NCBI GenBank assembly: GCA_963693365.1 | Contig: CAVNZM010000012.1 | Coordinates: forward strand, 2,232,001 to 2,296,000 | Length of the DNA: 64,000 bases | Direction: 5' to 3' | Source: Amoebidium appalachense | Taxonomy: Eukaryota > Protista > Ichthyosporea | In this document: positions 15,501 to 21,500 of the stretch, in pieces | How the letters are laid out: every line of letters starts with the position of its first letter | Numbering within the stretch: the first letter of the stretch is position 1 | Notes under the pieces: generated by a model | What the model was told of the DNA's origin: nothing | The model's database searches: none | Seen by the model: the letters and a program-made list of their open reading frames with translations, nothing else | Translations under genes and position numbers: made by a program

Positions 15501-18500
15501 CATCCCGAATCCCTTGATTCCAATCACGTTTTTTTTTTTTTTTTTTTTTTTTTTTTTTGGCCACAGGTATGCACGAGGTGAAAGACAAGGAAAGGCACCG
15601 GTGAAATTTAGGAAAGGCGCATGCGAGAACTGTGGTGCCATGACACACAAAAAGAAGGTGAGGTGTGTGGTTTGTAGGGGATGTGTGCGCGTGTGGTGTG
15701 TATACAGATATGTGGGCACAAGGAGGCAATTATACATGTGCATGGGCATGTGGATACATATGAACTCGCACAGATACATTCGGACACACACAAGGACATA
15801 TCAACACACGGTGTACATGCTCAGCACACACTCACACATACACACAGACAGAAACACAGGCGTGCGCGCACACACAGGCATGCACACACACACACACACA
15901 CACACACACACACACACACACACACACACACACACACACACACACACACACACACACACACACCGCTTCCTCTCACTCTATCCCCTCTCCCCCTCCCCCC
16001 CTCCCCTACCCCCCTCAGCCACACACACACACAACACACATACACACACACATACACATACCACACACACACACACACACACACACACACACACACACAC
16101 ACACACACACACACACACACACACACACACACACACACACACACAAACAACCCATTACAAAACACGTCACACAGTGCCACAGGGACATGCACATACCCAT
16201 CACATTCACACACACACCACACACACATACACACACACACCCCCCCCCCTCTCTCTCTCTCTCTCTCTCTCTCTCTCTCTCTCTCTCTCTCTCTCTCTCT
16301 CTCTCTCTCTCTCTCTCTCTCTCTCTCTCTCTCTCTCTCTCTCTCTCTCTCTCTCTCTCTCTCTCTCTCTCTCTCTCTCTCTCTCTCTCTCTCTCTCTCT
16401 CTCTCTCTCTCTCTCTCTCTCTCTCTCTCTCTCTCTCACAGTCACGCACGCACACACGCACACAAACACACACACACACACAGGTGCGTGTGTGCACTAT
16501 AACACAAGCACACACCAACACACCAGCAGAGACACACTCACTCATCCTTTCACACACACGCAAAGACATACATAGCGCACATGCACACATGCACACATCT
16601 GCGCACACCAAAGACACTCACACATGCATGAGTGGTGAGCGAAACGGGCTGCCCACACTTGCACGTTGTTGAAACACATGCTATAACCCAACCCCCCCCC
16701 CCCCCTCCCCCCCCCGGGTACTGTGGATGACGTGGGCCCCCCCTGAGGATGGGCTCTGCTTATTATGCATACTCTTTATGTATGGCTTGCATTCTGCATC
16801 GTGTTATCCGTTTGTTCTTGTGTACTTCGTACTTTTTGACGCATTCAAACCCCCCCCCCCCCCCCCCCCCCCCGCGGGGCCCCACCCCCACCCCACCCCC
16901 CCCTTCCGCCTTTTGTTCCAGTGCATGCACATCCTTCCTAATGCTGATGTATGTGCACCAACCAAATTCTCTTATCATCATCCCAAATAACAAGTACTAC
17001 AGAATGCATTTCTTGGTACCGTCGTGGTATCCCCCCCCCCCCCCCCCCCCCCCCCCCTCCCATACGCATTTTTCGCTGCACTGCATTAGTTTGCACACAC
17101 ATCTTCACTGCTTTGCTCACCTTGCTTGCATAAGCAACCCTGCTCGTCTTTGATCAAGACGGGTTGACCCGCCCAAGTTCAGTTGATGCTGCTGTCTGAG
17201 TTGGAGCGTCGTATATACGCGGGCTAAGGGGTCGAAACTCAGACGCAAATTGATGACTTGGGTCCTCCCTAAGGATGGGCTCTGCTTATGACGCATACTG
17301 TGCACATGGCTGATGTTGCATACTTGAATGTTTGCCTTTGCATGTGTCCTGCACCATGCTTCCCGTCGTGTATGCGTACTTCCTACCGTGTTCCGCATTC
17401 AAACCCCCCCCCCTCCCCCCTCCCCCCCCCATGGCAAGCTTATAATCGTATTTCTTATTCGCCCTGTTCTTTTAGAGTATCATGTGTTAGGTGATCTGCT
17501 TTGATGTGGTTAGATGTTTTGGAACCCCTCCCCCCCCTCCCCCTCCCCCCTGGTTCCTCACCCGCACGTTTCAGATATTTCTCGTTCATGCCTCGAAAGA
17601 TCATCATGCATTCACATGCATACATACACATGCACATGCAAACACAATATACCAACACGTGTGTGTGTTCAGGACTGCACGGAGAGACCAAGAAAAATCG
17701 GCGGGAAGTGGACGGGGGATGACTTGCAGAGAGATGAGGTGGTGAGAGACATAAACATGAACTGGGACTCAAAACGAGACAGGTATGAAACACCTAGCCC
17801 CCATGCGTCCCCCCCTCTCTCCTCTTCCCCTTCCCCCCCCCCCCCCCACCCCACCCCACCCCCTCTCTTCCCTTTTCGCCTCCTTCGCTTTCCACTCCCT
17901 TCCCCCTCTTTCTTTCCCTTTTCCTCCCTTCCCCGCCCCCCCCCCCCCCCCCCCCCCCCCCCCCCCCCCCCGTCACAATCTTCTCACATATATGAGAGAA
18001 TGATCGTATTGGTACGATTTGTCTAATATCTGACGATTCTGCAGCATCCCTAAGACCCCCCTCCCCCCTCCCCCTCCCCCCTCCCCCCCCCCCCCCCCAC
18101 CTTCTCTCTCTCTCTCTCCTCCCTCCCTCCCCTCCTCCCTCCCTCCTCTCTCTCTCTCTCTCTCTCTCTCTCTCTCTCTCTCTCTCTCTCTCTCTCTCTC
18201 TCTCTCTCTCTCTCTCTCTCTCTCTCTCTCTCTCTCTCTCTTTCTTTTTCCTCCTTTTTTTTTTTTTTTTTTTTTTTTTTTTTTTTGGCGCCTGTTGTTT
18301 TGCTTGTCATTTGTTGTTCTGGTTGATTACCTGTAATCTTCGCTTATTTATGTGTGTGTGTGTGTGTGTGTGTGTGTGTATGTTGTGCGGGGTTGCACAT
18401 ACCGGTGTCTACTTTTCTTCTTACTGTTTTTCTCTCCACACACTTCATCTGTCCACTTCTGCATACCCCCTTTCATAGCTATAGACACACTTCACACATT

Positions 18501-21500
18501 GCGTTACGCGCACGCATGCACACACCGCTCTGTTGGCGACAGCTCCCTTGGAACCCATGCGGCATGTTACCCGCCGGCGTAACATAACTCGGACTATCGG
18601 TTTGGCTTTTTTCAAGCCCAAAGCAATGGGTGATACCATATTTCCGGCTGACATCCGGGGGCATAGCTTTCCGTTCGAAGACGATAAAGTTCCGCCCTAG
18701 TAAGCGTGTTACTACCCTGCGGCGTGGGTCAAATCTCATATTTTCCCCTCTGATTACGAATTCTGTGGCCTTCGGGACTTAATTCTTTTCAGCTGGTGTA
18801 GTATGTTAGCCAGGGAAGTATCGACTTAGGTATCGACGGGGGAGCTTCCTAGAAGCCCCGTCTCCTGAGTTCCTATCTATATTTTTCTTGCTTCTGCTTA
18901 CTGCTGCAACTTTAACCCCCGGCCTTTCCCACTGCCCTTGCCTGCATAAGCAACCCTGCTCGTCTCTGATCAAGACGGGTGACCTACTCATGTTCAAGTG
19001 AAACAGTATCTGAGTTGGGTTTCGTTAACGAGGGGAATAGGTCGAAACTCGGGTACTGTGGATGACGTGGGCCCCCCCTGAGGATGGGCTCTGCTTATTA
19101 TGCATACTCTTTATGTATGGCTTGCATTCTGCATCGTGTTATCCGTTTGTTCTTGTGTACTTCGTACTTTTTGACGCATTCAAAACCCCCCCCCCCCCCC
19201 CCCCCCCCCCGGGGCCCCTATGTCAAAATACGACCACTGCCATCACCATGCAACATTTTGTGTGCGTATGCCATCCACTTGTGTGTCGTGCCTCTGTTTT
19301 GGTACCGTGGACTGTGCTTCTGAGCCTTCGACACACGCACACTGACATTCAGTTGTGTGCCCACGCCTGCACACACACACACTCTCTCTCTTTCACTCAC
19401 TTGACTCACTCACCTGCGCCCGCGCATGCCCCCGCGCACACGCACGCGCACACACACACACGTGCCTCGGGGTTGCAGTTCTCGAGGCACCTGCCACATA
19501 TGCTGCTATAGTAATTGAAAATGTCTTTGGTACCGCATTCACCCACATTCTACCAATAGAGCATCATGCTTTCAGTATGTTGTCGTGGAGGGTGGGCGAT
19601 ACAAATCAAGACGTTTACCTTTCCAGTTCAAAAAGATTCTCGTTGAAGACTATTGGTGTAAGATGTATCTGGTTTAACTTGAACTAATTGTTTTTTGTTT
19701 GTTTGATTTATTATATCATGTTTTCATGTGTGGGTGAGAGAAAAGAGAGAGAGTGAGTGAGAGGGGGAGAGAGAGAGAGAGAGAGAGAGAGAGAGAGAGA
19801 GTGTGTGTGTGTATCTGGTTTAACTTTAAACTAATTGTTTTTTGTTTGATTGATTTATTATATCATGTATTCATGTGTGGTTGAGAGAAAAGAGAGAGAG
19901 GGAGTGAGAGGGAGAGAGAGAGAGAGTGTGTGTGTGTGTGTGTGTGTGAACTCGTGCGTGTGTGTGTGCGCGCGCGGGTGGGCGAACACACACACACACA
20001 CACACACACACACACACACACACACACACACACACACACACACACACATCTCTAAATCGATTGGAATAAAAATTTACATGTATGTGTTCTAACCATTCCC
20101 CCGTGTTTTTCTTTTCACAGATGGAACGGTTTCAACGCCGACGACTACCAAGAAATTATCGAGGAATACGACAAAGTGGATGCAATGAAACTGAAAATCC
20201 GTCAGCAGAAGGTAGAAGACGAATTTCTTGCAGATGAAGACAAGGGCTACGGTGAGGAGGTATCCATGCCCGGTCAGAAATTCGACACGAAAAAGCGTAT
20301 TTCCGTGAGAAATTTGCGGTAGGTTAGGACTTGTTTTCCTCAAAACGTCCCCCCCCCCCCCCCCTTTTCCCCCCCATCTCTCTCTTGGTGCTTGTGCGGT
20401 TGGGATGCATACTCCCAATGTGTATTTCCCGAAACCTTTAGTTTGTTGTCCCTCGTGAAAGTTTACCTCGCTGTAACGTGTTCTTCATGGTATTTTCGAG
20501 CTGTACAAAGGCGGTGCATGCATTGTTATGTGCTACCTCGATTGGGACGTCACCAGGAGAGATTGGGACGTCACCAGGAGAGGGTGGGTGGGTGGGTGGG
20601 TGGGTGGGTGGGTGGGGGGGGGGGGGGGGGGGGGGGGGGGGGGGGATGGAAGGGAGGGGAAGACTGAACAGAAAGATTTGGCGATTCCGTTTGCCGGTTG
20701 GATGTGTTATGAACAGACACAGCATTCTGGTTGGATATTGTGAAAAGATGCCATACATATATTGGCATGCACAATGGAGAGATGAACCATATATGGTTCG
20801 ACATCAAGGACTCTGATTGGCCAGGCACAGCGGCCGTGTCTTTTTGTGGTTATGTATTCACTGTTGTGAACAGATGAACCATAAATGGTTCGACATGTCT
20901 TGTTCTGATTGGGTGGGCACAGTATCCGTGAAGACACGGCCAAGTATCTGCGCAACCTTGACCTCAAGTCCGCCTACTACGACCCGAAAACACGCTCCAT
21001 GCGCAGTGACCCCTATGCTGGCACGGGCAAAAGTGATCCCGTACGTGCGCCCCCCCCACCTCCCCCCCCCCCCCCCCCCCCCCCCCCCACACACACACAC
21101 AAACACCCAACCACCACCACCACCACCACCACCACCACCATTCCTCCTCCCCCCCTTCTTCCCTACCTCCCTCTTTCCCTCCATTCCTCTCCACCACACC
21201 TCTACGCAAACTATTACTTCTCTCGTTCTCCGGTCTGGTTTCTCCGAACAGTAATCGTGCTCACTCATGCGCGTGCACCCCCCTCCCCATCACACACACA
21301 CACACACACACACACACACACACACACACACACACATATGTAATACGGTACACCTACAGTCCACTGCATGTGTACGGCGCTGTGCTAACACATTCTTCTT
21401 CAGGGGTTCATTCCGGAGAACTTCATTCGGCAGACAGGAGACGCAATGGCAGTGGCCAGCTCCCAGGTGTTTGCCTGGCAGGCATACGAGGGTGGAAACG

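Follow-up and report, generated by a model that had tools for sequence, protein, structure and literature searches.

A probable hammerhead ribozyme with a split catalytic block at the 3' end of a repeated retroelement, likely of Penelope type, in Amoebidium appalachense

A repeated RNA domain was analysed in a stretch of 64,000 nucleotides (nt) from Amoebidium appalachense (GenBank assembly GCA_963693365.1, contig CAVNZM010000012.1, positions 2,232,001 to 2,296,000), here called the window. The domain lies at the 3' terminus of a repeat that is likely a Penelope-type retroelement. It is kept whole in copies A1 and A2 of one subfamily and copy B of another. Judged from its sequence, the RNA probably forms a complete hammerhead core in which the conserved blocks follow a non-circular order, the CUGANGA block is split, and the predicted cut falls after GUU at 19016. 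The original prediction for this DNA had described a pseudoknotted fold that could be a new ribozyme, a stand-in for the canonical hammerhead or a telomerase-RNA-like docking element for the reverse transcriptase (RT). A new ribozyme class is not supported, the fold being read as a complete hammerhead core in rearranged order. The stand-in proposal holds insofar as the fold is conserved and probably self-cleaving, although the hammerhead identity had been missed, as had stem I with its compensatory G-C to A-U change. Nothing was found in support of a telomerase-RNA-like role; a second role in RT binding may exist.

The Rfam comparison called for by the original prediction returned no family above threshold for the fold, telomerase RNA families included, and none of the 128 matches in the whole window overlapped A1, A2 or B. 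A weak partial match of copy A to Hammerhead_1 placed exactly the helix earlier described as a long-range pseudoknot, which is real and corresponds to hammerhead stem II, followed by GAAAC. This match led to the complete core, as the other core half and stem I could then be located. The residues C3-U4-G5-A6-N7-G8-A9 are present in A1 and A2 and, by contigs from public sequencing runs, in the B family (4 of 4 runs). G12-A13-A14-A15.1 is accompanied by U16.1-H17, and stems I, II and III surround the core with the G10.1-C11.1 pair in place. The nucleotides previously listed as conserved and unpaired are indeed conserved, and are now read as the core GAAA and CUGAGGA.

The frequency of such an arrangement by chance was measured using a descriptor that accepted any block order and a stem II strand anywhere within 200 nt, applied to dinucleotide shuffles (5000 each). 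At the observed, strong stem lengths the descriptor was matched by 0 of 5000 shuffles for A and 1 of 5000 for B, and at loose stem lengths by 16 and 25 of 5000, respectively. When the strong descriptor was run on both strands of the window the sole sequences to pass were A1 and A2, and a minus-strand hammerhead was rejected for want of a strong hit. Canonical hammerhead types I–III are excluded by the block order. The consensus of the selenocysteine insertion sequence (SECIS) has a G.A quartet, then a helix of 11–12 base pairs (bp) and an apical AA; a SECIS element was excluded here, as the 13-bp helix leads into UGG and lacks AA at the corresponding position. The weak Hammerhead_1 match also displaced a reading of the fold as a riboswitch-like kink-turn pseudoknot bound by the RT.

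The helix strands and motifs named in the original prediction were found in the copies for which they had been reported (Table 1). Comparison of A and B gave 43 comparable pairs, of which four are changed on both sides, three on one side and 36 are invariant, with none broken. Stems I, II and III each contain one change on both sides, while P1, P1b and P2 are invariant and uninformative on the fold. The covariation reported for the B helices belongs to real helices, but an eighth G.U pair is private to the window copy, as 17171 and 17263 differ in 4 of 4 B-type runs. The long helix is stem III, with its last pair better read as the catalytic A14 and U17. Several spacings are constant despite the letter changes, with 6 nt from the clamp helix to C3 and 1 nt from stem II to the clamp; A15.1 and the kink-turn are 13 nt apart in both A and B once a 1-nt deletion found in 4 of 4 runs is counted. 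Compared with B-type contigs in all four runs, the window copy of B carries private letters at 17171, 17263 and 17271, plus one extra base near 17247; position 17271 is G5, where copy B has A and the contigs read G. The nested-fold energy z-score was −1.3 for A, which is weak, and −3.1 for B, which is stronger.

In the kink-turn consensus, tandem G.A and A.G pairs come after a bulge of 3 nt. This pattern was found between two helices in both subfamilies, where it joins the clamp to stem III, and the joint is accordingly read as a kink-turn whose kinked shape is predicted from the pattern. The GATG element, conserved as originally described, is half of this kink-turn and not a plain bulge. A natural hammerhead with a built-in kink-turn was not found in the literature search.

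Table 1. Positions of the putative ribozyme domain, the repeat copies and the associated reading frame in the window
Feature	Position	Strand	Partner or detail	Basis
Whole putative ribozyme domain (A1)	18946..19098	+	closed by P1 (18946-52/19092-98) and P1b (18954-56/19086-88)	pairing analysis
P2 hairpin (A1)	18958..18980	+		pairing analysis
Stem II 5' strand, 10.x (A1)	18981..18985	+	G10.1=18981; partner 19039-43 (C11.1=19043); U-A in A, C-G in B	Rfam partial match, descriptor, pairing
Stem I–II clamp helix (A1)	18987..18996	+	9 bp and one bulged U; partner 19063-71; in B one double and one single change	pairing
Kink-turn bulged strand (A1)	18997..19002	+	3-nt bulge, then G.A, A.G, A.G; opposite 19060-62	pairing, kink-turn pattern
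Stem III (A1)	19003..19015	+	13 bp; U16.1=19015; partner 19047-59 (A15.1=19047)	descriptor, pairing
Predicted cleavage site (A1)	19016..19017	+	after GUU; H17=U19016	analogy with hammerhead core
Stem I, 1.x strand (A1)	19017..19019	+	partner 19075-77; pair 1.3-2.3 is G-C in A, A-U in B	pairing
Perfect 10-nt palindrome (A1)	19022..19031	+	stem I–stem II linker	sequence
Core GAAA (A1)	19044..19047	+	G12 to A15.1	Rfam partial match, pairing
Core CUGAGGA (A1)	19078..19084	+	C3 to A9	descriptor, pairing
Copy B stem II	17166-70/17229-33	+		pairing
Copy B clamp	17172-81/17254-62	+		pairing
Copy B kink-turn	17182-87/17251-53	+		pairing
Copy B U16.1	17201	+	end of stem III	pairing
Copy B stem I	17203-06/17265-68	+		pairing
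Copy B palindrome	17210-19	+		pairing
Copy B core	17269-75	+		pairing
Copy A1	18400..19184	+	5'-truncated; 3' end then poly-C	profile/alignment, contig coverage
Copy A2	22051..22425	+	core intact: C3=22319, G12=22285, U16.1=22256, G10.1=22222	alignment, descriptor
Copy B	17062..17403	+		alignment, contigs, pairing analysis
5'-truncated A copy	16714..16849	+	starts just past GAAA	profile
Diverged 5'-truncated copy	26401..26521	+		profile
3'-end-only copy	29956..30038	-		profile
5'-truncated copy	38624..38736	+	within C/CA repeat	profile
Diverged 5'-truncated copy	55305..55436	+		profile
5'-truncated A copy	55588..55712	+		profile
Short 3'-end remnant	14433..14484	+		profile
71-codon frame	18485..18700	+	may resemble the C-terminal tail of Penelope RT, no relative in any search; two in-frame TAG just upstream	

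The blocks occur in the order cleavage site (U16.1 at 19015), GAAA (G12 at 19044) and CUGANGA (C3 at 19078), abbreviated S-G-C. The clamp connects stems I and II on their far sides, as in type SGC hammerheads, but block C is interrupted, the best stem II strand lying 97 nt upstream of C3, and the RNA was for this reason not assigned to type SGC. The bases after A9 pair back into P1b, and the stem II strand stands directly 3' of hairpin P2. P1b and P2 would stack and fill the break between A9 and G10.1, giving a predicted four-way junction of P1b, P2, stem II and core, while the clamp would hold stems I and II together and reach stem III through the kink-turn.

Six block permutations have been set out by Eckert (2023, PMC10085705), where an insert of at most 1–2 nt between CUGANGA and stem II was assumed and a larger split assumed impossible; S-G-C hammerheads with a clamp helix cleaved in vitro and were found only in metatranscriptomes. 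The domain described here shares with these the S-G-C order, a core with two pseudoknots, a linker that connects stems I and II, a clamp on the other sides of these stems, and the puzzle of how the clamp joins distal stem III. It differs in that the P1/P2 insertion divides the C block at A9/G10.1, that ends free in type SGC are linked via the kink-turn, and that it belongs to a repeat in a eukaryotic genome. Penelope type I or minimal hammerheads (Cervera and de la Pena 2014, PMC4209133) are similar in their terminal-repeat location, the G10.1-C11.1 pair, an insertion between 9 and 10.1 and proposed dimers via palindromes. In those hammerheads, however, the order is circular type I, a single extra base is retained between 9 and 10.1, stem III is very short and the palindrome is in loop III, whereas stem III of the present domain runs to 13 bp and its palindrome is placed in the linker of stems I and II. 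The chemistry is known, while the architecture appears undescribed. No description of a split-C hammerhead, or of a non-circular hammerhead in a retroelement, was found in the literature covered, with most subscription journals and bioRxiv supplements outside the search.

Naiad elements and most Chlamys elements have been reported to be without a canonical hammerhead, and some records are flagged "HHR_half_core", with core halves 35–50 nt apart (Craig 2021, PMC8557442). Of the 79 NCGAAAC places in the consensus file of that paper, 56 were viewed, and seven, read by eye, showed the split layout, with stem sequences unrelated to A or B. The order in these records is closing stem, hairpin, stem II strand, clamp, stem III, cut site, stem I, GAAA, clamp and CUGAUGA. 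They comprise Naiad_Amil, Naiad_Aacu and Naiad_Anas (three close relatives), Naiad_Ovul and the record preceding it, and one record each in file parts 8 and 12, corresponding to about four independent lineages. The four-way junction is free of linker bases in the Amil-type trio and in the part-12 record; in these and in the octopus records the bases past CUGAUGA are unable to complete stem II. The octopus records have the kink-turn pattern at the clamp/stem III joint, but inverted, and stem I of the part-8 record has only two pairs. Naiad_Esco has a decayed S-G-C order, the ordinary C-then-G order is seen in several records, nematode ones among them, and most of the other places viewed are coding sequence. 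None of the Chlamys records among the 56 places had the split layout.

Naiad_Ovul is among the records flagged as half-core, in which no foldable ribozyme was identified by the same paper (PMC8557442). The Amoebidium repeat and the Naiad and Chlamys elements are also alike in 5' truncation, in insertion at (C)n or (CA)n as for Chlamys, and in core halves that stand far apart. The shared layout suggests why many Naiads were scored without a canonical hammerhead, since the descriptors require CUGANGA to adjoin stem II.

Searching the window with a profile of A1, A2 and B gave ten repeat copies. The copies have a common 3' end followed by poly-C, 5' truncation, no poly-A tail and a microsatellite target, C-rich or CA runs flanking 10 of 10. 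Sequence identity is 99% between A1 and A2 (391 nt compared) and 79% between B and A (180 nt compared). The interval 18400..19184 was covered in 30 of 30 bins in 4 of 4 public sequencing runs, with 11712 matching contigs in run X1, from which this DNA may come. The run data consist of contigs only, from which neither RNA ends nor strand are readable, and summed contig depth was not taken as copy number. Run X9 appears base-converted (nearly only C>T and G>A; loose ends converted) and its differences were left out of the variants. DNA pattern scans gave 1, 2 and 3 loci, all chance matches with just 13–24 nt of similarity.

The whole fold is kept in three of the ten copies. Five others, beginning at 16714, 26401, 38624, 55305 and 55588, start between GAAA and CUGANGA, as if the RT often halts on entering the folded core, and two start further 3'. 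Older or shorter remnants of the repeat 3' end were seen at 24240-24352, 26035-26130, 26215-26345 and 4255-4285; the copies at 24245 and 55305 both have C at core position 4. Three single contigs were also observed. In run X1 a joint of 18984 to 19081 keeps the strand before GAAA, the GAAAC and the kink-turn strand, but its stem III strand differs and is shorter; it is possibly a third subfamily. A second X1 contig, with a joint of 19055 to 19045, contains three imperfect tandem copies of 10 nt spanning the GAAA core, a pattern like that of reiterative copying by RT. In run X4 an 898-nt contig joins a truncated copy from 19029 to other sequence, possibly a host transcript with an absorbed element end.

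Assignment of the repeat to the Penelope type is likely, on the basis of element anatomy and the RNA layout in common with Naiads. Joints of the 3' end back into the element, such as partial tandems (pseudo-long terminal repeats) would give, were found in single contigs of runs X1 and X15. One X15 contig (1 of 4 runs) closes a head-to-tail unit of about 454 nt for family B. Such a suggested unit containing a hammerhead resembles the non-LTR retrozymes (Cervera and de la Pena 2020, PMC7229834), which differ in carrying type I hammerheads and measuring 170–400 nt; the family B hammerhead is not of type I. Pfam gave no match for four frames (one read with X at stops). In the protein searches, five representatives matched via repeated short stretches, and the four of them that were scanned all had unrelated domains.

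Self-cleavage after GUU at 19016 would process tandem transcripts into unit-length or circular templates, as has been proposed for Penelope elements and retrozymes (PMC7229834; bioRxiv 10.64898/2026.07.22.740005). A rough rigid-rod estimate gave a gap between clamp and stem III of 20–44 Å, compared with about 14 Å of linker, when all helices are intact. The gap exceeds the linker, so one molecule would be unable to close the ring with every helix formed. Judged by arm length, closure is possible for the short-armed octopus and part-12 records, borderline for the part-8 record and out of reach for the long-armed Amil-type records. The linkers of A and B both contain a perfect 10-nt palindrome, of different sequence, and a palindrome at the same place occurred in 34 (A) and 60 (B) of 5000 shuffles, or anywhere in 504 and 631 of 5000. 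The strained closure and the linker palindromes together led to the model of a domain-swapped dimer, in which halves would be exchanged between two copies joined by their palindromes. Dimer action has precedent among Penelope hammerheads (PMC4209133). Cleavage by such a dimer is proposed tentatively, at somewhat less than an even chance; a lone copy in a host intron would then cut slowly. A clamp-opening switch is an alternative to the dimer. The loop of P2, too, is a palindrome in each subfamily (18967-18972; 17150-17157) and offers a second possible dimer contact.

Several results weigh against the hammerhead assignment or parts of it. The Hammerhead_1 score of A is 14.2 bits, below the gathering score of 34, and copy B gave no Rfam match. 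The descriptor was composed after the motif had been noticed, and copy B, with its change at G5, fails both the strict descriptor and the C3-A9 core pattern. The alignment has three rows (A1, A2, B) from two independent subfamilies, too few for covariation statistics, and the absence of listed variants in CUGAGGA among the run contigs is not significant alone, as 23 of 162 places varied. Stem I of A has just 3 bp, and GUU is a slower cleavage triplet. No copy among the ten starts at the predicted cut site and three run through it, so the template would have been uncut or re-ligated. This is in line with the anole Penelope element, for which hammerhead cleavage was dispensable for insertion in vitro (PMC11167929). 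The Naiad comparison was read by eye with no computed alignment, and the coral Naiads, with similarly long arms, showed no equivalent 10-nt linker palindrome, which weakens the palindrome argument. No open reading frame for an RT or endonuclease (N-terminal GIY-YIG, CxC domain) was found in the window, and for the 71-residue frame none of 24 candidate relatives scored, with none in PDB or Atlas.

Several of these points would also suit an RNA of hammerhead descent that cuts slowly or not at all and serves chiefly as a folded handle for the element RT or a host kink-turn protein. The GUU triplet, the short stem I, the strained one-molecule closure, the lack of copies starting at the cut site and the dispensability of cleavage in another Penelope element (PMC11167929) favour such a handle, as does the tolerance of intact copies in sense orientation within a Slu7 gene. 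All catalytic bases are kept, however, in both subfamilies and in distant Naiads, which a role in binding alone would not need, and this explanation was judged improbable. The active form could instead be an ordinary type SGC hammerhead, with stem II completed 2 nt past A9 (19087 onward) and the upstream strand acting as an off-switch that sequesters the partner. Four pairs in A or six in B can be drawn with a 2-nt insert, inside the limit of Eckert (2023, PMC10085705), but this contiguous stem II is weaker (−2.2 for A and −5.1 for B) than the split one (−6.7 and −7.1 kcal/mol), half of its pairs are G.U, P1b is opened and the clamp geometry is lost. Nor do the Naiads of coral, octopus or file part 12 allow such a pairing, and this active form was judged very improbable.

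A fold unrelated to hammerheads, be it a ribozyme of a new class, a docking RNA akin to telomerase RNA or a recoding signal akin to SECIS, would agree with the lack of any Rfam family at threshold and with the presence of SECIS elements in some Naiads; the tandem G.A loop of the RNA also resembles a SECIS core. Against this, the 11 core bases and three stems fit a hammerhead at 0–1 in 5000 by chance, apical AA is missing at the SECIS spacing, and the octopus Naiad kink-turn is inverted, leaving such a fold hardly credible. The split hammerhead core in S-G-C order is retained as the probable identity of the domain.

The window is eukaryotic and microsatellite-rich, with spliceosomal-type genes including Slu7. 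Copy A2 is inside an insert of about 1.07 kb (22032-23108), which is flanked by two 4-bp direct repeats and breaks up a Slu7 exon. An in-frame splice is possible from an element-internal GT (22059) to the AG at 23107-08, and the insertion may have become an intron. Other host genes encode a protein O-mannosyltransferase with a MIR domain (58363-61754, minus strand), a fatty acid desaturase (7689-8831, minus strand) and a CNNM domain (36983-37708, plus strand). The stretches 43878-44768 and 47373-48604 are duplicated with about 77% likeness, probably a tandem gene pair.

The fullest form of the proposal combines a non-circular hammerhead split at A9/G10.1, beyond the six permutations and widespread in Naiad-type Penelope elements (corals, octopus and this eukaryote), with a two-copy ring here, built on kink-turn and palindrome, that cuts only tandem transcripts, and with family B as a 454-nt circular RNA; taken whole, it is possible and rather doubtful. 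If the hammerhead assignment is true, hammerhead topology would be extended past the six block orders of 2023 and a non-circular hammerhead would be placed in a eukaryotic genome. It gives an exact predicted cleavage site and a new descriptor with which genomes may be rescanned, and it offers a testable answer to the question of the hammerhead-lacking Naiad and Chlamys elements and their distant half cores. If the dimer model is also true, the domain would be a natural copy-counting ribozyme.

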